Shown in pieces: positions 11,600 through 63,112 of a stretch of DNA of 64,000 nucleotides. A program made the position numbers and the translations under genes. Position 1 is the stretch's first letter; the number at the start of each line of letters is the position of its first letter. A model generated the notes under the pieces. That model was not told where the DNA came from, made no database searches, and was given only the letters and a program-made list of their open reading frames with translations. The stretch lies in contig CM075988.1 of the NCBI GenBank assembly GCA_038087875.1, forward strand, positions 10,604,001 through 10,668,000, written 5' to 3'. The stretch is from Malacoraja senta (taxonomy: Eukaryota).

Positions 11600-12484
11600 T
11601 CATAGACCATTCATACGCTCCACCAGCCCGGCTGCTTGCGGGTAATACGGGCTGTGGAGAGTCCACTGCACCTCACTATCAGCTACCCACTGTTGTACTC
11701 TGTTACCTGTAAAGTGGGAACCGTTATCATACTGAATTTCCCATAGGGTGCCATACACGGCCATTAGCTGTTGCAGGCCATGCAACGTGTGGTCCTGATT
11801 GGCCTTATTGGCTGGGACAGCCATTAGGATGCCAGTGTAGGTGTCCACCAGGGTCAGCGCATATCCCTTTTTCTGACACATGAACATCGGGCCAATATAG
11901 TCAATTTGCCAGATACTTCTTGGCCCAGTTCCCTGCTTAATCTGTCCCTCTGTCCCAGCAGAGCTGCTCCAGGGCTTCTCTTCCTGACCTACCACACACG
12001 ACTGGATGGCTGTTTGTACGTCATCCTGGGAAAGGGCCACCCCCCAGTCCCTCTGCCCACTTACCTGTCCCCGCTATACCCAGGTGGCCACTCTGGGCAT
12101 GTGCCCAGGCAGCCAAATGCCCATCCGCGGGGGAGGTGACCATTTGAATAAGCGCCGCCTCATCTCCTGCGGCATTAAACAGGGCCTCAGCATCTCCCCA
12201 CCAGTGTGTGCATTCACATGGTCAACCGTGATGGTTCTACGGTGGTCCTCTTCCCATATCCTGATCCACAGTGACTGTCCCCACAACCGCCGACCATATA
12301 TCTCCCACCCCTGGGACTGCCACAATGTCATCCATACAGCCATACCATTGGCAACTGCCCAGGAGTCAATGTACAGTCGGACTGGAGTATTGTCGTCGGT
12401 CAAGGGAAGCGTGGCCACCGCAAGCTCGGTCAGTTGGCTCGAGTCGCCAGTGCCAGTGTCTCGTCGGTCCTCAAAAAGATCGTA
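11600..12484 (-). mobile_element. Endogenous retrovirus pol fragment (RNase H plus integrase), class III/ERV-L-like, frameshifted
   Basis: RNase H motifs VRLYIDSWAVANG and HVNAH; integrase N-terminus WAHAQSGH...SCVVGQ; core WQIDYIGP, DNGSHFTG and PYYPQAAGLVERMNGL. Confidence 0.88.
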
Positions 12485-14004
12485 GGCTTGATATTTTATT
12501 CATCTTGGATGTGCTTAAATATTGGCAAGGATATTGGGATTAATGTCCTGTTCTTTTTCAAATAGAATCTTAGAAATCACCAAATAAAGAGGTTGGTATC
12601 TTATGTTGCTATCTCATCTAAAAGACGAGGAGAGTGCATCCTACTATCTAGTAAACTGCAATGCCCACCTCAAATTTATGGTTAGTTCTATGAAGTGGAA
12701 TTTGAACCAAGAATCTCTGAAAAAACGAATGAAAGTACTGGGGTAACTCAGCGGGTCAGGCAGCATCTCTGGAGGACATGGATAGGTGATGTTTCGAGTT
12801 GGGATCCTGCTTCAGATGTAGGCTCAGGACCTTTCTTCTGAAGAAAGGTTCCAACCCAAAATGTGACCCATCCCTGTTGTTCAGAGATGTGTCTGTTTTT
12901 CTAAACCAGCATCTGTGGTTCCTTGTATCCAAAATGAACTTCTGACATGGGTAAGAAAGGTTTGGGTAAAACCCAAGGTCCATTTAAGTTTCAGCTTAAC
13001 CAGTAAGTGATAACATTGGGAATGTGAAGTTTATGTATTGGTGCCCAGAGTTCCAATGTAAGTATATCCTTAAGCAGGGGGTCATAGAAAGGCTGATTAG
13101 ATGGCATTTCAAAACTGGCTGCACTCCACGTGGCGTAAGAAAGGCTGCCTAGTCCAATTTGGTGCATCCTACTTTGCTAACCGAAGTAAATGTTATAGCG
13201 ACAACATTGTAATCCTGCTTAGATGTGGGAAGCTATCAGAGGACTGTGGGATTCCATCCATGCTTAAAGGAAAGTAAGGGGATAATCCTGTTAATTCCAG
13301 GTGTGCTATGCCAAGGATGATAGGGGGAAATGTTTAGCGCCAATGATCCTACACAAAATCTATTGGAGAAACCCAGAATTCAAAGACAGGACACATTTAT
13401 TAAAAAACAATCATATATTACTGCATTGTCTAATATATTTGATTAATAAGGAAATATGTATGGTCTTGTGAATATTGACATTATTTTTTTTAAACAAATC
13501 ATGCACGGCATAATGACAAATGACAAATGAAACCCATAAAATCAAATGGTTGTGGCAAGATAAATATAGTGTTTGCTGAGGGATAAAAATGAGGCAGCAC
13601 TGATAATATTTCAGACTTGAAGGGAAGTATGCATTACAGAAACCCACAGATTAGGTTTGAAAACATTGCCCTTTAATACATATTTATATCCCCAGGCATA
13701 TGGGGCATAATTCTAAATTTCAAGTTAATCAAAACTTGTAAACATGGTAAACATTGACAAAGGTAATAGAAGAAAAGAAGAAATTGAAATGTAAGGTCGA
13801 TAGATGATTGAGAGATGAAGTAGCTTATTTTGGTACGAAGAATGAGGATACCGAAGATAAAGTGTAAAAAGTTCAATAGAAATAGATGCAAGAAAATATG
13901 TAAATATAATTTTTATGCAGTTAATTATAATGCACTACCTGAAAGAGATGGAATTTGATTCAATAGTATGTGTGGATACAGACTTGAAAAAGAATAATAA
14001 ATGC

Positions 14005-32965: not shown

Positions 32966-33759
32966 AGGGCCTGTCCCACTTACGCGACTTTTCAGCAAAC
33001 TGTCTGCGACCTTCAAGCTCGGGGGCACTCGCCTGAAAAACCGCGAGCTGGATCGTCCGGCAGCGTTGAACACACACACACACAAACACATGCAAAGGTG
33101 GGAGCCAGCGAAAGCGGGGGAGCGCTGTCTGAAATTCACACGGTGCAAAGCCAAGGTGATACCCGCGATGAACAGGAAGGTTAAAGACGGCTGGCACAGT
33201 GTACGGTAAGTCCTTTAAAAGAGCGGGGGGGGGGGAGGGGGGAGGGGAGAAGGGGGAGATGGGGTGGGGGGGGTGAGAAGAAGGAGTGGAGACACTTTTA
33301 AGAAGCCAGACAACTTTTAATAAGCCAGAGATACACAGCTGTGAAGTTTAGCGGGCATTTAACATTGCCGGTAGGTTTTCCTTGGTTCTGAAAACTCGTG
33401 CTTACATTTTTCCCCAATGAGCCAATAAAATGCCTGGTCAGCAAAGGAGATTACCTATGGCTACCTCGACTACCTACAACAACATGGCAACCCCACTACC
33501 ACTGCACTACGAGTTCCAAAGTATCGATTTTCTCCATGCCGACCAATTTTTACTCGCAGAAAATGTTTCAGCTTGTTGAAAAATTTTCCGCGACCAAACT
33601 GAGGCCACGAGTAGTAACCACTATGCGGGAACTCCTCTCGACCATGAAGGAGACTTACCAGTGACCACGTACGACCACGTGTCGACCATGCTGCGAGCTT
33701 GAGGCGAGCGCAAACTCTCCTAAACTCGCAAATTAGGTCGCCGTAGTGGGACAGGCCCT
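32966..33759. mobile_element. PIF/Harbinger-type MITE
   Basis: Perfect 15-bp TIR AGGGCCTGTCCCACT (32966-32980 / 33745-33759), direct TAA TSD (32963-65, 33760-62), CpG-rich, non-coding. Confidence 0.9.
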
Positions 33760-33807: not shown

Positions 33808-34985
33808 AAAGATAGAAACATAGAAACATAAAGATAGGTGCAGGAGTAGGCCATTCGGCCCTTTGAGCCTGCTCCGCCATTCAATATGATCATGGCTGAT
33901 CATCCAACTCAGTATCCTGTACCTGCCTTCTCTCCACACCCCCTGATCCCTTTAGCCACAAGAGCCACATCTAACTCCCTCTTAAATATAGCCAATGAAC
34001 TGGCCTCAACTACCTTCTGTGGCAGAGAGTTCCAGAGATTCACCACTCTCTGTGTGAAAAATGTTTTTCTCATCTCGGTCCTAAAGAATTTCCCCTTTCC
34101 TTAAACTGTGACCCCTTGTCCTGGACTTCCCCAAAATCGGGAACAATCTTCCTGCATCTAGCCTGTCCAACCCCTTAAGAATTTTGTAAGTTTCTATAAG
34201 ATTCCCCCTCAATCTTCTAAATTTTAGCGAGTACAAGCTGAGTCTATCCAGTCTTTCTTCATATGAAAGTCCTGACATCCCAGGAATCAGTCTGGTGAAC
34301 CTTCTCTGTACTCCCTCTATGGCAAGAATGTCTTTCCTCAGATTTGGAGACCAAAACTGTACGCAATACTCCAGGTGTGGTCTCACCAAGACCCTGTACA
34401 ATTGCAGTAGAACCTCCCTGCTCCTATACTCAAATCCTTTTGCTATGAATGCTAACATGCCATTCGCTTTCTTCACTGCCTGCTGCACCTGCATGCCTAC
34501 TTTCAATGACTGGTGTACCATGACACCCAGGTCTCGTTGCATCTCCCCTTTTTCCTAATTTGCCACCATTTAGATAATAGTCTACTTTCCTGTTTTTGCC
34601 ACCAAAGTGGATAACCTCACATTTATCCACATTATACTGCATCTGCCATGCATTTGCCCACTCACCCAGCCTATCCAAGTCACCTTGCAGCCTCCTAGCA
34701 TCCTCCTCACAGCTAACACTGCCCCCCAGCTTCGTGTCATCCGCAAACTTGGAGATGTTGCATTCAATTCCCTCGTCCAAATCATTAATATATATTGTAA
34801 ATAGCTGGGGTCCCAGCACTGAGCCTTGCGGTACCCCACTAGTCACTGCCTGCCATTCTGAAAAGGACCCGTTTACTCCTACTCTTTGCTTCCTGTTTGC
34901 CAGCCAGTTCTCTATCCACATCAATACTGAACCCCCAATACCGTGTGCTTTAAGTTTGTATACTAATCTCTTATGTGGGGCCTTG
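33808..34985 (-). mobile_element. CR1/HER1 LINE, same subfamily as 62052-63112, with frameshifts
   Basis: Near-identical peptide (VTSGVPQGSVLGPQLFTIYIND...LEYCVQFWSPNLRKD) split across frames. Confidence 0.95.
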
Positions 34986-35745
34986 TGAACTAAACACAAA
35001 GTGCTGGAGTAATTCAACAGGTCTGGCAGCATCTCTGGAGGGAATGAATGGATGACATATTGTGTCTGTGCCCATCTACAGACTGATTGTAGTGGGGAGA
35101 TGAGAAAGCTGGAAAAGATATGGGGGCAGGACAAAGCCTGGCAAGTGATAGATGGATACAGGTGAGGGGGTTCAATTGGCAGATAGGTGGATAACGGCTA
35201 GAGATGAGAAGGAGATAAGAGAGTGTTAGATAAGGCGAGAAGAGGAGTTAAATTTAAAGCCAGAGGGAGAGATATATGTGAGGGGGGGGGGGGGGGTGGG
35301 GAGGAGGTGGGAGAAAGGGCAGGATAGTGGTGGAAATAGGTGCACACTGAGATAACAGGGACACAGGAAAGATGTGAACTGATAGATAGACACAAAATAC
35401 TGGAGTATCTCAGACGGACAGGCAGCATCTCTGGATAGAAGGAATGGGTGGGAAGGAAACTGCAGATGCTGGTTAAAACCTGAGATAGGCACAAAATTCT
35501 TGACTAACTCAGCGGGACAGGCAGCATCTCTGGAGAGAAGGAATGGGTGACGTTTTGGGTTGAGACCCTTCTTCAGAAGGAATTGGTGATGTTTCAGGTC
35601 GAGACCCTTCTTCAGAAGGAATGGGTGATGTTTCAGGTCGAGACCCGCCTGCAGAGACCCCCTGCTGCCTGTCCCTTTGAGTTACTCCAGCATTTTGTGT
35701 CTATCTTTGGTTTAAACCAGCATCTGCAGTTCCTTCCTACACATA
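34986..35745 (-). mobile_element. Cluster of Penelope 3' UTR/pseudo-LTR derivatives with a 39-bp tandem repeat
   Basis: Several copies of ...ctcagcgggacaggcagcatctctggagagaaggaatgggtgacgtttcgggtcgagacccttcttcag. The 39-bp unit recurs about 3 times at 35536-35646. Confidence 0.75.
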
Positions 35746-45344: not shown

Positions 45345-46960
45345 ATAAGAAGGACAATCCCAAAAGATTTTATAGATACATAAGGGGGAAAAGTGTAACT
45401 AGAGAGTGATTGGGACTTCTCAGGAATCAAAGTGGTCACCTCTGTGTGGAGTCACAGGAGATGGGCAAGGTCCTAAATGAGTATTTCTCCTCTGTATTTA
45501 CAGAGGAGAAAGACAGTAGGGCGGAGGAAATTGGAGCAGTCACTGGAAGTATCTTGAGAGCAGTCAGGGTTACTGTCGAAGAAGTACTGAAGGTACTGTT
45601 GTGTTTGAAAGTAGTCAAATCTCCAGGGCCTGATCTGATATATCCGAGGACATTGTGGGAAACTAGAGAGGAAATTGCAGGAACCCTGATTGAAATGTAT
45701 GAGTCTTCCTTAAATACAGGAGAGGTGCCAGAAGACTGGAGGGTGCAAATGTTGTACCTCTTTCCAAGAAGGGCTGCAGAGAAAATGCTGGGAGCTGTAG
45801 GCCAGTGATATACAGGCATTTGGATGGGGAAGGGCTAATTAGGGATAGTCAGCATGGTTTTGTACGTGGGAGGCCATGTCTCACTGATTGATTTTTTGAA
45901 GACGTGACCAAAAAGGTTGATGACGGCAAGGCTGTAGATGTTGTGTACATGGACTTCAATAAGGCGTTCGACAAGGTTCCGCATGGTCGGCTGCTCTGGA
46001 AGGTTAGATCGCATGGGATCTTAGGAGAGATAGCTGAAAGGATAGCAAATTTGCTCAATGGAAGGAAGCAGAGGGTAATGGTGGAAGGTTGCTTCTCAGA
46101 CTGAATGCCTGTGACTAGTGGTGTGCCTCAGGGTTCGTTACTGTGCCCATTATTGTTTGTCATCTATATCAATGAATTGGATGAGAACATATAGGGCAAG
46201 ATTAGCAAGTTTGCTGATGATACAAAAATTAATCCTTTTGCAGATAGTGAAGATGATTGTGAACGATTGCAGCAGGATCTGGATCGATTGGCCAGGTGGG
46301 CGGAGGAATGGTTGATGGAATTTAATACAGAGAAGTGTGAGGTGTTGCATTTTGGGACGTCGAACAAGGGCAAGACCTATACAGTAAATGGTTGCTCTCT
46401 GGGTAGTGTTGTGGAGCAGAGGGATCTAGGAGTACAGGTGCATGGTTCCTTGAAGCTCGAGTTGCAGGTAGATAAGGTGGTCAAAAAGGTTTTTGGCACT
46501 TTGGCCTTCATCAGACAGAGTATTGTGTATATAAGTTTGGAGGTCATGTTGCAGTTGTATAACACATTGGTGAGACCACATTTAAAATATTGTGTTCAGT
46601 TCTGGGTATGTTATAGGAAAGATATTGTCAAGCTTGAAATGATTCAGAAAAGATTTATGAGGATGTTGCCAGGACTAGAGTGTGTGAGCTATAGGGATAA
46701 GTTGAATAATCTGGGTCTCTATTCCATGGAGTGCAGGAGGATGAGGGGAGATCTTATAGAGGTGTACATAATCATGAGAGGAATAAATCAGGTAGATGCA
46801 GAGAGTCTCTTGCCCAGAGTAGGGGAATCGAGGACCAGAGGACATAGGTTCAAGGTGAAGGGGAAAAGACTAATAGGAATCCGAGGGGTAACTTTTTCCA
46901 CACAAAGGGTGGTGGGTGTATGTAACGAGCTGCCAGAGGAGGTAGTTGAGGCTGGTGTTA
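45345..46960 (+). mobile_element. CR1 LINE ORF2 fragment, degenerate
   Basis: KSPGPD, MDFNKAFDKVPH, KFADDTK, RTRGHRFKVKG, with stops and frameshifts. Confidence 0.92.
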
Positions 46961-48841
46961 ATGAGCGGGGATTGCTAGTCGGTGCGGACTCGGTGGGCCG
47001 AAGGGCCTGTTTCCGTGCCGTATCTCTAAACTCAACTCAACTAAACTAATTATCTCTGAAAATAAACATGTGCTTTTGGATGTTTACACTCATTGTTCAA
47101 GCATTAAGGTGAATATGTGGCTCTTTAAAAGGGTTTACATCCTCCCTTTCTTCCTGTGCATAATGTATTTTAATTCATTAAGTTGAGGTGGGAGTCACTG
47201 ACAGGAGCAACAATTACTTTCCACCCAGAAATGCCCTTGAATCAAATAAATTGCTTGGCAATTTCAAAGGACAGTGGGCGTGAAGTCGCATATAGGTCAG
47301 ACTAGATAAGGACAGCTGATTTCCTAAATGAAAAGAATTTTCCATAAAAAAACAATCTTGCAGTTTTATAATGACCAACTGTTCTTTAAACCACATTATA
47401 AGAGCTGATTTTAATTCACCAGTTGCCATGGTGAGATTTGAACTCTTGTCTTTGACTTAATAGTTTAGGCTTCTAGTGTTCTGATCAGTAACTTTAGCAT
47501 CCAGTGTGGCCAATGTAATAATTAAAAGGGCACAGTGGCACAACTGTAAAACCCCTGTCTCACTGTGCGAGCTGACCCACGAGGTACCCCGAGTTTAAAA
47601 CAAATTTAACTCGTGGTAATCACGTACAATTAACGTAGCGGGAACGTCGGAACTCGTGGACGCAACTTAGCGACTCTTGGCGCTAACGGCAGGTACCCGT
47701 TAAACTTGTTAACTCTTGAAAAAGTTCAAACATGTTTAAACTTTTCCATGAGTAAAATGTACTCTTGAGGTTAAAATGTGAAACATTTAAACACGTTGTA
47801 AGAACGTAGTGGCCCGTGCGTTTACCTTAGTGACTCGTGAGTCTACCGTGGGAACTCTTTAACTCAGCGGGCAGGCAGCATCTCTGGAGAGAAGGAGTGT
47901 GTGATGGGATGACATTTCCAAATTTCTGCTGTGTCTTTGTGTAACTCCAGCGCTTTTAGGTGGTATGATATCCACCTTCACAAGGTGACCCTGAAGTGCG
48001 ATCAGCGGTACATGGGATATACCATCCATAACGTACATAAAGTCGACGATAATAATTTAAATATCCATTATGATCCTAGAGACAAATTCAGTTCCTCTGA
48101 GACAGATGATGAATTTTGAAAAACGTCATCATATCTAGAACTGTGACAATCAGAAATTGAATTGCGGAAACGATGTATTTTGCCGCATTGTTTTTGATGC
48201 TGCATTTTGGTTTTGTGCGCTGCTGGGGGCGACCGTGCAATAAAATGTAAATGATCAAGTATAACATTTGTGGGGCGAGGTTACAACTGAATGTGGAGAT
48301 ATTAAAACAGTTTGGTATATTCGTGTACTGCGACCGGATTTGTAAAACGGGAATCTTCGTTAAATCTTGATTTCGCCTCAACCAATATATCTCCCAGTTT
48401 CCCTGCAATTTTGGACTCCAGAACATTTTGATTTCCGAAAACAAATGTGACTTTTTTGCTTGCCTTTTTTACGTCGTTTTCAAATAACGATTACAGATAA
48501 TATTGTGAACTGTTTTACATCCGGCTGCCAATTGTATCCAGGTAGCTTCTTCAACCTGCCTCTTACATGTCTCCCATTCTGCCATTGAACAGGTAAATAT
48601 TTGCACAGAGGCAGAGGTCCTTGTGCAACAATAAACATATAAACATAAAAGTCACTCCCGGGGCCTGAAATCATCTGGCTTTCCATCATTGGCTGAGATT
48701 ACTCGATTCTTCACTATCGAAGATCGAGTTGAGTGTTGCTACATCCGCAGACCCCGCAAAAAAAACCAAGTTTTGACTTTGTTAGGATTTAGACATTTAA
48801 TATGGAATACGATTATTAAAACAGAGGAAAAACAATATCTC

Positions 48842-48847
48842 TTTATT
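48842..48847 (-). promoter_or_regulatory. Candidate AATAAA polyadenylation signal of the Zic5-like 3' UTR
   Basis: Plus-strand tttatt reads AATAAA on the minus strand, ~1.37 kb after the stop. It is followed by T/GT-rich sequence and no poly(A) run. Confidence 0.45.
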
Positions 48848-50213
48848 CACAATTGGAAAATACACTGTCACACGGTTTAACCTCTTTCACTGAAACACAA
48901 AGTACACGTGGATCATTCATTTCAATAAAGGAACTGTCTTTGTTGCATTTTTGTTCAATCAGGAGTTCTGGGTGGTGTTTGTCAATGCAAGGGAAATACA
49001 AGATGACTGCAACATGCATCATGATCATAACATGGACCAATACTGTAGTTACAACGATTAACCACCATTGAGCAGAAATAAACAATCACATATTTTACTT
49101 TTCACATTTTACATTTCATTCAATTAATCAAAAATTAAATTGTCTGACGAAACCACAGATTCATAAACACCACAATATCGCACCAAACGTAATAATATAA
49201 TTATTTGGTGTGTCTGTACTATCGCAGAAAGATATGACACATCAGCAAATAAATTATAGTTTACAAATAAAAGAGCATTACTGGACAAAATCTTAAGATA
49301 GCTAACGATTACATCAACGACTTGCTGCCCACAACAATGATGTACAAATCCTACAGGGACAGGCCTGTCATTTTTGCATCTTCTGGCCTCTAAGGACATA
49401 TTAGTGCTCTTTAGTTTGTTTGTCTGAAGGCCTGAATAATTATGTGTAAAATATGAGATTTTTGACTTTTCCATGACGGATAGAAGATCACTCAAAAGAA
49501 TCTTAGAGCTCTTGGATTTAAGGGTTGAGATATTGTCGATTCTGATTTCAGGGTCAAAAAGAGTCCTTGTGAGTTTCACTCTTACTGATAGAAGACGCTT
49601 TTCACATATAGCAGGAAAGTCCGAATTCAGCTTTGTATGTTAGGGATGTGTAAATAGAATGCCGCTTGTGCTTCGTTACCGAACGTGGTGGCACTGGGTC
49701 ATTTCACTGAACACAAGGCTATGGCCGTTTTGATTCCCTCCAGGGATTGTAGTCATGAAGATTTTACAGAATTGTAGAATTTCCCTTCTTTCGGACAATG
49801 GTCTCTAATTTGTGAGTAAGCAAAGGTCGGCTATGTATGTATCACTTCCAAGAAGCGAGGTGTTTCTCGTGGGTCGAAGATTCTATTGCCAGTCCAAAAT
49901 GGGTCTGATGATATGTTTTATCTATTTAAGTCACGTCTGATTTCAGAAAATCAATATCTATAGTCTGAAAGTAAATGAGATAGCGATTCTCTTTTACCTC
50001 GAAGTACACACAATAATTCTGACTGACACGGAGGCCAAAAAGTTGCTTAAGAACCGATACTTAGCCCTTAAATTCCTTTCCTACGAGGTTTGAATCTAGC
50101 TGGTGTAAGATGGTCATCATTGGACATCCTAGCTGCCTTTAGTTGATGGGCTCCATTGCCACTATCCCTGCGTTGACTCTTGCCCACTTGCACACTTCTC
50201 CAACGCACCTATG

Positions 50214-50596
50214 TCAGAGCATAGTTCTGGGATCAGAGTTCGTGTAAACTTCCTCATCCTCGGTGTTGGACGAGGTGCCATTGTTGGAAGGTGCGTGCAG
50301 GCTGTTGGCCACCCCGCTTCCCTCACTGACGTACCATACGTTGAGGTTAGTTACTTGCGAGGACACGCTGGCAGTGCGGCCCCTGACTGTCTCTGCGGCT
50401 GAGGACACCATCCCCAGAGATGTGTTTGAAAGCTCATAGCCTGAGCTAGCGGGAGGGGGAGGAGATTTGCAGTGAACTTTCATGTGTTTGCGAAGAGAAC
50501 TAGGGTGAGTGTATGACTTGTCGCAGCCTCTTACTTTACAGTTGTACGGTTTATCACTGGTGTAGATGTGAGAATGCTTCTTCCTCACTGCTATTG
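50214..50596 (-). pseudogene. zic5: Zic5-like terminal-exon fragment (end of C2H2 finger 4, finger 5, C-terminus); 5'-truncated and mutated
   Basis: Translation [44 protein letters not shown]...[11 protein letters not shown]...[25 protein letters not shown] matches the Zic4/5 subgroup, and the tail matches ZIC5 (QVTNLNEWYVCQ...TEDEE). Lesions: a 2-nt deletion between the NSS and RKK codons (aat agc agt ga--gg aag aag, ~50584), zinc-ligand HVH->HIY, and NEWYVCQ->NVWYVSE. Homology stops at ~50596 and no upstream Zic exon is visible. Confidence 0.88.
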
Positions 50597-50975
50597 TTTC
50601 AAACAAATCATAAGTATAACTGCTCTGGCACTGGACGGTGCGCATTTTCCCTTTGTAGGTCATATCAATAGATGCGGCCGCGCTGAATTCTATCTTAACT
50701 CAAAGCCGCAGGATGGAGATGTCTTCTTTAACACTGTTGCTTATTAAAACAGACTTCATTCACGGTTGGCTCAAGAGTAACTCGGGAGAGGAACTTGATA
50801 ACTCGGGAGACGAACTTGGAACATCGCAGAAATGACAAGTAAACGGCAAACTTAGTCATACCCATGGGAACTCGGTTAAACTCTTGATCATACACTTGGA
50901 ATCTCGTACACTTCGACGAGTCTTTCACTCGGGGTACCTCGTGGGTCCACTCGCACAGTGAGACAGGGCTTTTAA

Positions 50976-51282
50976 GGCGGCACAATGGTGCCGCTGGTAG
51001 AACTGTTGCCTCACGGTATCCCAACCTCGTGTGCTGTCTGTGTGAAGGTTGCACGTTCTCCCTGTGACTGCATGGGTTTTTTCTAGGTGCTTCCCAAAAC
51101 ATCTCAAAGACGTGGCGGATTTGTTGACATATTGTCCTCGGTAAATTGCCCCTCTTGTGTCAGTGTGGATGAAGATGTTGGGTAACACAGAATGAGTGTA
51201 TACCTGGTTATTGTTGGTTGGTGCAGACTCAATAGGCCGTATGTCCTGAATACATGTTGTATCTCTAAATTCTAAACTCTAA
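50976..51282 (+). mobile_element. HE1-type SINE abutting the right TIR
   Basis: Head ggcggcacaatggtgccgctggtagaac, tail tatctctaaattctaaac. Confidence 0.8.
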
Positions 51283-51493
51283 TATCTTTGATTGGAGCAT
51301 GTGAATCTTTCATTAATGCATGTATTCAAGAGAGCGTTAGATATAACTCTTAGGGCTAACGGAATCAAGGGATATGGGGAGAAAGCAGGAACTGGGTACT
51401 GATATTGGATGATCAACCATGATCAGATTGAATGACGGTGCTGGCTTGAAGGGCCAAATGGCCTACTCCTGCATCCATTTTCCATGTTTCTAA

Positions 51494-52087
51494 AGGCTCT
51501 GTCTTACCTGTTTGCGGTCATCGGCGGTGAAGCGCGGCGTTGCCGGTAGCGGGGACCGCACGGCAACGGCGAGAGCGCCGAGCCTATCCACTGGAGCGCC
51601 GCACGGATGCTGCGCGGGGGCCGAGTAATTCAAATACGGCTGGTCCCACGTGCTTGCGGTAAGTAAAAAAAAGGGCGGGCCGACTGCGATGACGTCGGCC
51701 CGCCGCACGTGACTCACTAGCGGCGGCTGTGGCGGCGGCCGTCCTGATCGCGGCGCTGTAGCGGTGGCTGTGCCTGCGGCCATGCCGCACACGTGCCTCA
51801 CTGGCGGAGGCACGTGCCTCACTGGCGGAGGCTGTGGCAGTGGAAGTTTGATGCACAGCGCTCGAGCCACACTGGCGGCGGCCCGTGCGGACGGCCGTGC
51901 CGCACTCGTGCATCACTGGTGGAGGTTGTGCGGTAAGAATATAGTTTTAAACAGTGTAGGTTTTATTTTAGCACCGTGCGGTGTTGGGAACGGCCCCGGA
52001 ATTGTGCGTTCTCACGAGTGCGCGGTCTATGGCGGCAGATTCTTCCCGTTTCGCCGCCAATGACCGCAGACTCGTGAGACAGGCCTT
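51494..52087. mobile_element. GC-rich PIF/Harbinger-type MITE inserted in a CR1 tail
   Basis: Imperfect ~40-bp TIRs (AGGCTCTGTCTTACCTGTTTGCGGTCATCGGCGG versus rc AAGGCCTGTCTCACGAGTCTGCGGTCATTGGCGG), TAA/TTA flanks, internal 21-bp tandem duplication at 51790-51831. Confidence 0.8.
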
Positions 52088-52394
52088 TTAGTTTCTATAA
52101 AGTCAGATGCTTCAATTTAAACAATGTAAATGTAATGTTACTCCATTATTTTATCTCCCAGCTTTTTTCAGAGCATCCTTTCACTTTTGCATTACATTTA
52201 AATGAACTGGGGTTTCACAAGAAGCAGCATTCTGTTACATCCTGCTACTCAGCCCATGATTGAAATTAAACTGTAGGTGTATGCTGATTATTTTGAGCCA
52301 ACAATCTTGCCGTATCTTTCCAAGTCACATATCATTCTGATATTGACTTACCGTACAATAGCATTTCTTCAACGCTGATCATTCAAAATCCTTG

Positions 52395-53290
52395 CAGAAA
52401 ACAGACATACTACCCTTGACCATGACCTCGCAGACGAACACCAGGCCATCACCTCCATACTGTTTCTGATCTCATCACTTTTGGCAACCTCCCTTCCATA
52501 GCCTCCAACCATATTATTCCCCGGCCTAGCACTGCCCACTTCTCTCTCCTTCCCAAAATTAACAAACAGAACTGCCCTGGCAGACCCATTGTTTCTGCCT
52601 GTTTCTGCTCCATAGAACTCATCTCCAAATTCCTAGATTCCATCTCCTTCTGACCTGTATCCAGGACACCTTACATGCCCTTCAACTCTTCATAACTTTC
52701 AATTTCTAGGCCCTCATTACCTCATGTTTTCCATGAACGTCCAGTCCTTTACACTTCCACCCCCCACAAGGAAGGTACCAAGGCCCTCCAGTTCTTCCTT
52801 GAACAGAGACCCAATCAATTTTCTTCCACTAACACTCTTCTTAGCCTGACAGAACCTGTCCTCACATTTCCAACTTTAGGTAGCTACCAACCACCCCCTT
52901 CCCCACTCCAGCTTTCTTTCCCACTCTCTCTCCCCTGTGCCCCACCTGGACTTGCACCTATTTCAGACCTCCCCCACCCCTTCCATCTACATTCCTTCCT
53001 CTTGCTTCACAATTCGCAATTCTTCCATCCTTTTGTCTCACATCTTTGGTCCTTTCATCTCTGGCCTTTGTCCAACCTTCTGCCTATCAAACCCTCCTTT
53101 GCCAATATCCACCTGACACTCGGCAGGCTATGTCCTGCCCTGCTCCATTCCAGCTTTCTCCCTCCCACCCCCCACCACAATTAGTCTGAATTAGGGACCC
53201 AATCTGAAATGTCATCCATCCATTTTCTTTAAAGATGTTGCCTGACCCGTTGAGTTACTCCAGCACTTTGTGTTGTTCCTTGTTTCTGCA
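52395..53290 (+). mobile_element. Degenerate Penelope fragments (RT N-terminal part plus 3' UTR)
   Basis: LLPKINKQNCPGRPIVSAC motif typical of Penelope RT, then the 3' UTR and terminal motif. Confidence 0.75.
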
Positions 53291-55934: not shown

Positions 55935-57120
55935 TTCTCCACTGTTATCAGGCTTCTGAAATCGTCCTTCCATAAGCTAAGGTATAAAAGCATTCACCTC
56001 TACTCCATTGTGGACATTGGGCTTTGTCTATGGAACTTTACTCATACTATACTCATTGCTGCGTAGCCGGACATAGTGCAAACTCCATCATCAAGTTCGC
56101 CGACGACACCACTGTTGTGGGACAAATCACTGATGGGGACAAGTCAGAGTATAGAAGTGAGATAGACCGATTGACCAAATGGTGCCAGCACAATAACCTG
56201 GCTCTCAACACCAGCAAAACCAAGGAACTGATTGTGGACTTTGGAAGGGGTAGGATAAGGACCCACAATCCTGTTTACATCAACGGGACGATGGTGGAAA
56301 GGGTCAAGAACTTCAAATTCCTGGGCGTGCACATTTCCGAAGAACTTTCCTGGTCCCAGCACACTGATGCAATTATAAAGGAAGCACATCAGCACCTCTA
56401 CTTCCTGAGAAGACTACGGAGAGTCGGTATGTCAAAGAGGATTCTCTCGAACTTCTACAGGTGCACAGTAGAGAGCATGCTGACTGGTTGCATCGTAGCT
56501 TGGTTTGGCAACTTGAGCGTCCAGGAGCGGAAAAGGATGCAGAAAGTTGTAACCACTGCCCTGTCCATCATCGGCTCTGACCTCCCCACCATCGAAGGGA
56601 TCTATCGCAGTCGCTGCCTCAAAAAGGCAGCTAACATCATCAAGGACCCACACCATCCTGGCCACGCACCCATCTCTCCGCTACCATCGGGCAAAAGGTA
56701 CAGGAGCCTGAAATCTGTTACATCCAGGTTCAGGAACAGTTGCTTCCCCACAGCCATCAGGCTATTATACTCGCCAACAAACAGACTCTGAACTGTAAAA
56801 GCCTATTGCACTTATTTATGTATATCTGCTTATTTATGTGTATATTGAACTGAACTGTTCTGTATTTTTGCTTACAATATTCTGTTGTGCTGCAGCAAGC
56901 AATAATTTCATTCTCCTATCTGGGGCACATGACAATAAACTCTCTTGACTTGACCTGGGTGCTGCAATGCTGAGAACTATATTCTGCACTTAGTTTCTTC
57001 CCCTTTATTGTACTTAAGCTTGAAATTATGGCATTTTTGTATAGTATATCTATTTGGGGAGCATGCAAAACAAGGATTTTCACTTTACCTTGGTACATGT
57101 GACAATAATAAGCATGAAAC
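55935..57120 (+). mobile_element. Older Rex1-like 3' end, split by the nested Rex1 copy
   Basis: 55935-56036 and 56956-57120 read as one continuous LINE 3' UTR ending gtacatgtgacaataat. Confidence 0.6.
56037..56955 (+). mobile_element. Rex1/Babar-clade LINE, 5'-truncated, open RT C-terminal frame
   Basis: IIKFADDTTVVG...NNLALNTSKTKELIVDF...FYRCTVESMLTGCI...LPSGKRYRS, stop at 56791, then 3' tail with caataaa and (CTTGA)n. Confidence 0.92.
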
Positions 57121-60325: not shown

Positions 60326-62051
60326 CCAATTCTTCAATTAGTATGAAATGAGGCATTTCTTCAATTAAGACTAACGAAGATTGCTCAATCGGGAAGTCGC
60401 TGACCACTTCAAGAGTATATAGAGAACATTCACAATCCACAGATTGATTACACAACCTCCAATCTTAATGTACTCTGTTGATCCAGCTTTGCAAGTTTTC
60501 AGCTATGGAAGAACTGGAGTGGAAGTAAGTCATGCTCAATCCCAAGGAACAATTGAAGAAGAAACAAAATACCATTTTGTATGTGTAATCTAAAATAAAG
60601 AAAGGAAGCAATATTTAATGTTGGCTTTGTCTAACTCACAGCTTGAATTTACAAGCTACAAACTCTACCAAATGGCAGTGGGAATTAACAAGAACTATAG
60701 TTACTTAATGTTACCAATAAATAACATTAAAATCAGAAACCCCACTGGGAGTGCTTGAAGTTTATCCTTAACGGAGAATGAACAAATGAATTACGGGAAG
60801 ACACAAAATGCTGGAGTAACTCAGCGGGACAGATGAATTACAGTTCCATCTTACCAACTAATTCATAACCACAGCCTATAGATTAGCTCTCATAAATTGG
60901 CTCAGCTACTCAGTGGTTTACTTATGGTTCGGGGAGTATTGTTAAAAATGGCTTTGATGCTGAAATTAATGTTACTCAGGTCTTTCGAAATAAATGTTGC
61001 AACTTCTATCAGACAGGTACTCTATCGACAGATACTGCCCACTTGCTGAGTATTCCCAGAATTTTCTTTTTTTATATTTCAGATTTCTGGCAATTTGTGT
61101 TCTGCATATTACAGTTCCATGCAGTCGTTGTTTTGGTATCATTCAGTCTGCCCATACAGATCTCCCTCAAAAGTATCTGGAACATCTCCAGCATCTCATC
61201 CCTGGTTTGTTTCAACCGTATCTGCTTGGCCCCAAATGAGTGGAAGTCCAAAAGAGTTGAGTCACAAAAAATGGCGAGTCAGCAATTCCCTTTGAAGCCA
61301 CCCAGCTGTCTGTCAGGGTGATCATGTCCATTCTCCACCCTTCCACTTTATCTCCAAACAAAGGATGGTCCTTTGTAAGGTCCATCACAGCAAAGGACCA
61401 GTTATGATGGAATTATTACAACTCCATAACTTGATCCACAAATCTATCAATTTCAATATCATTCAATAACCGAGTCTCCACTAGCATGGCCACATTGGCC
61501 CAGTTTGATCATGACCTTGGGTACTGTTGTGTGGAGTTCTCGCCGTGATCATGTGGATTTCTTCTGGGTGTTCCAGGTTTCCTCGCACATCAAAAGACGA
61601 GTAGATTTATACGTTAATTGGCCATTGCAAATTGCACCTAGTGTGTAGGGAGCAGATGTAATAGAAGGATAACATAGAACTAAGATGAACAGGTGATTGA
61701 TTGAGTGTTTCCATGTGGTATCTCTAAAGTAATTAAACCTAGTTTAACGGTCTCCAACGAAGCATGACCTATCCTCGATGCCTGATGTAGTATGAAACAA
61801 GGTTGACAACTTTAACCATGCAAACTTATTTCTATTCCAACAAAGGATCTACCACCTGAAACAATAACTCTACTTCTCCTTTCACAAGTGCTGTCCAGTA
61901 TGCTAAACATTTCCAATATTTTCTGCTTTCATTTCAGATATAAAGCCTCTCAATTTTGTTATGGATTTCCACTAACTTATTTCCCTTTGGACTGAGCTTA
62001 TATCTTGAACGCTGGGGTCCAAGTAATACTGTATATAATATTGAGTGTCAC

Positions 62052-63112
62052 TTTTCACAATGGCAGGCAGTGACTAGTGGGGTACCGCAAGGCTCAGTGC
62101 TGGGACCCCAGCTATTTACAATTTATATTAATGAACTGGATGAGGGAATTGAAGGCAACATCTCCAAGTTTGCGGATGACACTAAGCTGGGGGGCGGTGT
62201 TAGCTGTGAGGAGGATGCTAGGAGACTGCAAGGTGACTTGGATAGGCTGGGTGAGTGGGCAAATGTTTGGCAGATGCAGTATAATGTGGATAAATGTGAG
62301 GTTATCCACTTTGGTGGCAAAAACAGGAAAGCAGACTATTATCTAAATGGTGGCCGATTAGGAAATGGGGAGATGCAGCGAGACCTGGGTGTCATGGTAC
62401 ACCGGTCATTGAAAGTATGCATGCAGGTGCAGCAGGCAGTGAAGAAAGCGAATGGTATGTTAGCTTTCATAGCAAAAGGATTTGAGTATAGGAGCAGGGA
62501 GGTTCTACTGCAGTTGTACAGGGTCTTGGTGAGACCACACCTGGAGTATTGCGTACAGTTTTGGTCTCCAAATCTGAGGAAGGACATTATAGCCATAGAG
62601 GGAGTGCAGAGAAGGTTCACCAGACTGATTCCTGGGATGTCAGGACTTTCATATGAAGAAAGACTGGATAGACTTGGCTTATACTCGCTAGAATTTAGGA
62701 GATTGAGAGGGGATCTTATAGAAACGTACAAAATTCTTATGGGGTTGGACAGGCTAGATGCAGGAAGATTGTTCCCGATGTTGGGGAAGTCCAGGACAAG
62801 GGGTCACAGCTTAAGGATAAGGGGGAAATCCTTTAAGACCGAGATGAGGAAAAACTTTTTCACACAGAGAGTGGTGAATCTCTGGAACTCTCTGCCACAG
62901 AGGGTAGTTGAGGCCAGTTCATTGGCTATATGTAAGAGGGAGTTAGATGTGGCCCTTGTGGCTAAAGGGATCAGGGGGTATGGAGAGAAGGCAGGTACGG
63001 GATACTGAGTTGGATGATCAGCCATGATCATAGTGAATGGCGGTGCAGGCTCGAAGGGCCGAATGGCCTACTCCTGCACCTATTTTCTATGTATCTATGT
63101 AATCTATGTATG
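62052..63112 (+). mobile_element. Young 5'-truncated CR1/HER1 LINE with open RT C-terminal frame
   Basis: SGVPQGSVLGP, SKFADDTK and RPHLEYCVQFWSP in one frame to the stop at 63008, then the 3' UTR and (CTATGT..)n tail. Confidence 0.95.

Follow-up and report, generated by a model that had tools for sequence, protein, structure and literature searches.

The window, which is the whole 64,000-nucleotide stretch analyzed, contains a 3422-bp unit (47550-50971) in which part of the developmental gene zic5 is enclosed by the arms of a repeat. We consider that the 3' end of zic5 was picked up in a single capture by a non-autonomous Harbinger-like DNA transposon, which was later copied as this unit to a few dozen places in this skate lineage (probability about 0.83). 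The element is best read as a lineage-specific multicopy Pack-TIR, and its membership of Harbinger, judged from the target site and the ends only, is probable. Contigs of four public runs were compared with window positions 47000-52400, namely X1 and X2 from organism A and X4 and X15 from organism C; the outgroup evidence comes from one DNA run, X4.

The ends of the unit form inverted repeats of 45 nt, which differ at positions 3, 23 and 24. The initial annotation had described these termini and, within the ~3.4 kb between them, a Zic5 fragment with its 3' region, and alignment and the protein match confirmed both. The left terminal inverted repeat occupies 47550-47594 (plus strand) and the right one 50927-50971 (minus strand). 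The inverted match could be lengthened to 55 nt at 89%. After the region had been shuffled 50 times, the top inverted match was 21 nt, compared with 48 nt in the real sequence. The left target copy is TAA (47547-47549, plus strand), read from the sequence and present as a single TAA at the empty site of organism C (X4 record 24). The right copy is TTA (50972-50974, plus strand), which differs from the left one in its middle base and was placed by the same empty site. A resident repeat follows in the right flank (50975-51290, plus strand); it resembles at least 11 further places in the window and comes directly after the left flank at the empty site (X4 records 24 and 29). This repeat is presumably a SINE-like head.

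A 3-bp T-(A/T)-A duplication and a terminal inverted repeat of 25-50 bp characterize PIF/Harbinger, and both were found here, the latter with 45 nt. The difference between TAA and TTA may be a later mutation; more speculatively, a staggered-cut overhang could have been carried into an oppositely oriented target. Excision by staggered cleavage within the duplication is proposed for Tourist-like elements in the cited part of PMC4561436. A Pfam search of 7 of the 25 listed frames gave only zf-C2H2 above the cut-off and no transposase or Myb family, an absence expected of a non-autonomous element. The Harbinger-like assignment stands on target site and ends. The proposal that the termini share a core with the MITE at 32966-33759 holds for the end core; it does not extend to wider similarity, the arms giving only 10-11 nt matches at chance level. 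That MITE itself measures 794 bp and has a perfect TAA/TAA duplication beside the shared end core.

The two arms represent the left and right parts of an element without overlap, with one inverted end apiece. The left arm (47550-47860, plus strand) is high-copy in both species and contains AACTC/GAGTT motifs at 16 per kb versus 1.5 per kb in the cargo. The right arm of 377 nt (50595-50971, plus strand) contains a 20-nt tandem pair at 50778-50818; the match of X15 record 10 (organism C) begins at 50595, and summed depth climbs there. Between left arm and cargo lies an unstranded filler (47860-47950) separate from the cargo. Its beginning (47860-47904) derives from a common interspersed repeat, which matches 35505-35550 at 93% over 46 nt and recurs at over 10 further places of the window. 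We take this repeat to be SINE-type. In organism C the range matched by the cargo is 47951-50585, which refines the initial annotation. Microhomology at the capture junctions was at most 1-2 nt. At 47860, four X1 contigs diverge from the left arm and continue as TTAGAAACAATA; 11 of 12 positions agree with the reverse complement of 50592-50603 at the opposite capture junction. This match may reflect an inverted repeat internal to the cargo-free element at the capture points, or could come from copies with inverted cargo.

The cargo lies on the minus strand and consists of 2.26 kb of captured zic5 3' non-coding DNA (47951-50213), comprising the 3' UTR and possibly DNA past it, and the last exon of Zic5 (50214-50595), which protein comparison showed to be 5'-truncated and frameshifted. 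On this strand 50217-50591 aligns with the C-terminal 123 residues (351-473) of ZIC5 from Amblyraja radiata, which has 473 aa; 9 of these 123 residues differ (93% identity). This was the best of 934 matches, the next being ray and shark ZIC5 at 83-89%, so that a skate is very likely the host. The exon remnant is without the splice acceptor and about the first 17 codons; as the contig protein P0003 shows, the last Zic exon normally starts ~21 codons ahead of the matched piece, after intron-like sequence. Finger 5 and the C-terminal tail are kept, and the last His of finger 4 is replaced by Tyr. A 2-bp deletion near 50585, deduced from the protein alignment, is common to the deep contig X1 record 6. 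Poly(A)-like hexamers were present at 48842 and 48796 in the 3' cargo. The window and the deep X1 contig share 47 nt at 48209-48255 where the organism C contig has ~6 nt.

No other Zic coding pieces, neither exon 1 nor Zic2 fingers, were found in the 64-kb window by tblastn with the full Amblyraja radiata ZIC5. Exon 1, the splice acceptor, five intact fingers and a Zic2 neighbour, by which a functional zic5 would be recognized, are all missing here. The window copy cannot make Zic5, since it is without promoter, exon 1 and splice acceptor. A 149-codon open frame (50214-50663, minus strand) begins at an ATG in the right arm and is in frame with the Zic5 remnant; it is because of the shared 2-bp deletion that this ATG reads into finger 5 and the Zic5 tail. 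The chimeric 149-aa protein was absent among the 103 matches of a protein search, which contained ordinary Zic proteins only. It is doubtful that the family is a young gene-shuffling element on a plant scale with some of its dozens of copies active, whether as zic5 3' regulatory DNA or RNA feeding back on the real gene or as a new 149-aa protein family made from the arm ATG in one skate lineage.

A real degraded zic5 gene, or a retrocopy later flanked by repeats, is a very improbable source of this piece. The matched coding part lies in one exon with its 3' region, so that no intron discriminates DNA from RNA copying, and the presumed RNA run of organism C (X15) had coverage on repeats and arms only, being uninformative on expression or transcript end. 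However, the window is devoid of exon 1 and Zic2, the cargo match extends ~890 nt beyond the hexamer at 48842, the junction has no poly(A) tail, and on either side of the cargo stands an arm of the same element, inserted where organism C has an empty site.

The orthologous insertion site in organism C is empty, as the initial annotation had proposed to look for in related species. Behind 47528, X4 record 24 reads GGCACAGTGGCATAACTGTAAAGGC, in which the left flank passes through one TAA into the beginning of the right flank. Because the outer flanks are joined by one TAA, the 3.4 kb entered as one piece, and this 3422-bp insertion is later than the split from organism C. The length of the empty site fits a 3-bp duplication with one mismatch. 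A 2-bp TA duplication was rejected, as it predicts one A fewer than the empty site of organism C shows. The initial annotation had also envisaged that the two ends might belong to independent MITE copies. Two such copies flanking a segmental zic5 duplicate would suit the unlike target copies (TAA and TTA) and the great abundance of the arm family. This is nevertheless extremely unlikely, as the site in organism C has neither end and shows that the 3.4 kb arrived whole, and as the left and right arms cover separate parts of the element, each with a single inverted end.

The cargo was also found in organism C, on a different contig. X4 record 27 is a 5989-nt contig of depth 24.7 (flanks 20.7-27), which matches only 47951-48208 and 48256-50585 and runs on for ~1.6 and ~1.8 kb past the cargo with sequence unlike either arm. 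We take this contig as the parental zic5 locus. Cargo plus exon differed from it at 99 of 2588 nt. This armless single-copy contig, together with the lack of exon 1 and Zic2 fingers in the window, agrees with the earlier view that the window does not contain the native zic5/zic2 locus. Organisms B and D-G contain 0.27-0.29 of the words, similar to C.

Organism A appears from its flanks to be the species of the window or very near to it, with 8 of 1200 nt different in X1 and 0 of 579 nt in X2. The samples X1 and X2 come from the same study and have unrecorded library types; the sample of the assembly itself may be among them. In the listed pieces, cargo to flank depth was 94.6/4.5 = 21 in X1 (range 18-25; 5 cargo and 3 flank contigs) and 726/21.5 = 34 in X2 (17.5-52; 6 cargo and 2 flank contigs), versus 24.7/24.4 = 1.0 in X4 from organism C (1 cargo and 3 flank contigs). 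Bins of 180 nt over 48086-50438 agreed, with depths of 43-176 against 4-5 in X1 and 569-2229 against 18-32 in X2. At several cargo sites (49470, 50165, 50267), X2 had 4-5 alternative contigs. X1 record 6 (50183-50624, depth 92, gapless) crosses from the exon into the right arm; the amplified form is therefore the chimera and not the parent. We estimate the cargo copy number at about 20-35, bearing in mind that contig depth is not a copy number; this may be an underestimate owing to private mutations, since only ~67% of 31-mers survive 1.3% divergence. The suggestion that the element may have dispersed its cargo gains weight from a 21-34x depth excess, which makes dispersal to separate genomic places likely, although the contigs examined showed no other insertion site.

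It is conceivable but unlikely that the chimera is real and the extra copies all stem from one further place, amplified in tandem, as a segment or on a supernumerary chromosome, the window copy being a single insertion or the result of gap filling into a MITE that had landed earlier. Depth carries no position information, the ratios of X1 and X2 are unlike (21 vs 34), and according to the cited part of PMC8277862 most animal Pack-TIRs form by transposition-independent gap filling. On the other hand, the depth excess ends at the element with the flanks single-copy, the site in organism C is without a resident element, the exon-arm junction recurs in the amplified form, and the ends are intact.

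An assembly artefact joining zic5 DNA to repeats is scarcely credible, and misassembly of the window structure is unlikely. Among the listed contigs, the left flank-end junction was crossed by 23 nt (X1 record 1, 47020-47572, depth 4.95, which passes from the unique left flank 23 nt into the left terminal inverted repeat) and the exon-arm junction by a contig that extends 30 nt into the arm, both short of the 31 nt required by the rule for such crossings. The left arm-cargo and right end-flank junctions had no spanning contig among the pieces listed, so that 2 of 4 junctions would leave room for an artefact, as would the possible inclusion of the assembly's own sample in the organism A runs. 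Against this, the exon-arm junction and the frameshift both recur in the independently assembled contig of depth 92, private substitutions are numerous in the window copy, and the depth excess occurs in both samples.

The window copy differed from the deep contigs by 1.35% and 1.20%, compared with 4.5% for flanks between species; this would put the spread after the species split. It probably dates roughly half-way back along the lineage of the window. Among the private exon changes of the window copy, 7 of 8 alter the amino acid, as expected without selection. The finger 4 His-to-Tyr change was not among the eight differences of X1 record 6, therefore the majority of copies share it. The sequence suggests that the window copy is decaying neutrally, and any function would be putative.

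Capture of the zic5 3' end by the transposon may be pictured in three steps. Repair or stalled replication within a member of the high-copy family would have led synthesis to switch template to the zic5 locus, copying ~2.65 kb that starts within the last exon, together with ~90 nt from other repeats, before returning to the right arm. We infer such a template switch because the arms do not overlap, the break lies inside the exon, the match continues ~890 nt past the hexamer, ~90 nt of filler is present and microhomology is at most 1-2 nt. The 2-bp deletion by the exon-arm junction would have arisen at capture or before the spread, because the majority shares it. A transposase supplied in trans could then have moved the unit, one copy landing at a TAA after the split from organism C; movement of this kind is suggested because both ends are intact, the site is empty and depth is in excess. 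The window copy would afterwards have decayed neutrally. The anatomy of the capture fits the gap-filling or FoSTeST schemes in the cited part of Tan et al. (PMC8277862).

Features that mark a Pack-TIR were recovered in the unit. Both terminal inverted repeats bounding it belong to one repeat family with arms that are high-copy in both species, the cargo comes from a host locus not linked to the element (ZIC5 match, armless organism C contig), and insertion occurred as a unit with a target duplication, one mismatch between the target copies and an empty site. As in multicopy Pack-TIRs, the cargo was amplified with an arm (21x, 34x; X1 record 6). Pack-TYPE elements of plants reportedly combine exon capture with repeated transposition, and a multicopy Helitron-borne gene is said to occur in platyfish. 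The window element likewise resembles plant Pack-MULEs and Pack-TYPE elements in exon capture followed by repeated transposition, but plant MULEs make long target duplications in other hosts, whereas the duplication here is 3 bp. Of the rice Pack-MULEs, 36% are multicopy as cited in the relevant part of PMC8277862.

The multicopy Pack-TIRs in the cited part of Tan et al. (Pack-hAT-N8_XT and three others; Ssk-FB4 of Drosophila) likewise contain host DNA between non-autonomous TIR arms, and the Pack-TIRs described there share the empty orthologous site, a parent that is not adjacent and little or no microhomology. Ssk-FB4 also has extra filler, of 45 bp, at one junction (PMC8277862, in part). 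The same survey, as far as its cited parts go, lists 370 animal Pack-TIRs in 100 genomes, with 21 PIF-Harbinger rows in Supplementary Data 1. Only 4 of 281 vertebrate Pack-TIRs there were multicopy, with cargo of 206, 279, 291 and 458 bp; the two described examples had 3 and 5 transpositions, and none of the four IDs was a PIF-Harbinger row (PMC8277862). The window element differs in its ~2.65 kb of cargo and estimated 20-35 copies from these few copies of 206-458 bp. PIF-Harbinger Pack-TIRs of Xenopus and alligator are likewise vertebrate Harbinger-type carriers of host DNA, but in those parts of PMC8277862 they are not listed as multicopy, have cargo of ~0.1-1.1 kb and mostly lie near the parent. 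The initial annotation had called such capture much less documented in vertebrates. Vertebrate Pack-TIRs including PIF-Harbinger ones were, however, already described in that source (PMC8277862). Animal Pack-TIRs being already known, the present element is unusual in its cargo size, copy number and carrier.

PIF/Harbinger and Tourist-like MITEs, as characterized in the cited parts of PMC4561436 and PMC9179366, likewise have TIRs of 25-50 bp and duplicate 3 bp whose middle base is T or A; the window element differs in that it contains no internal transposase or Myb-like gene and its target copies are unlike. Harbinger is reported as undetected in the elephant shark in the cited part of PMC9179366, which counts against the Harbinger label, and this cartilaginous fish had 0 Pack-TIRs in the survey, whose strict filters may miss cases (PMC8277862, in part). 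A different reading of the flanks, with AAA to the left and TTT to the right, would suit Spy elements; these leave an intact AAATTT at empty sites and are reported from invertebrates in the cited part of PMC4122938, whereas the empty site here has no AAATTT. A Spy transposon was rejected on this ground. No published report of a Zic5 capture or a skate Pack element appeared among the best 10-20 matches listed from the open-access literature, no published enhancer in the zic5 3' region appeared among the matches listed, and the words 'Harbinger' and 'Zic' occurred 0 times in the main text of one elasmobranch genome preprint.

If the reading as a multicopy Pack-TIR is true, plant-like capture and spread of host DNA occurs in cartilaginous fish. 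The spread DNA would be 2.65 kb from the locus of a developmental transcription factor, present in some tens of datable copies; the parent can be identified, and a close outgroup has the site empty. In the cited part of the broad survey, transposition of captured host DNA is rare in vertebrates, with short cargo and a handful of copies (PMC8277862). The element offers a tractable case of how capture occurs and of whether scattered copies of the zic5 3' region affect regulation. In the species of the window, zic5 qPCR, in situ probes, read mapping and gene counts would be confounded by the extra copies.

Other repeats were observed in the window. An element with related ends at 51494-52087 is flanked by TAA and TTA as well, its left boundary being uncertain by one base. 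Its summed contig depth was 150,000-180,000 in X1, where single copy is ~4-5, and X4 had zero depth over 51525-52067. These depths point to a very large MITE burst specific to the lineage. X4 record 30 begins at 52090 and is consistent with an empty TAA target for this element. Metagenome contigs scanned with a 17-nt end motif gave 60 loci, which are attributed to chance because none matches the Zic5-bearing unit beyond 28 nt. Minus-strand frames at 11600-12499 resemble, as judged by eye, what is left of the RNase H and integrase of an LTR element or endogenous retrovirus. Two LINE reverse-transcriptase-like copies at 33831-34865 and 62051-63086 are in opposite orientation and ~95% identical over 1 kb, and further LINE pieces occur at 46195-47049 and 55988-56791.
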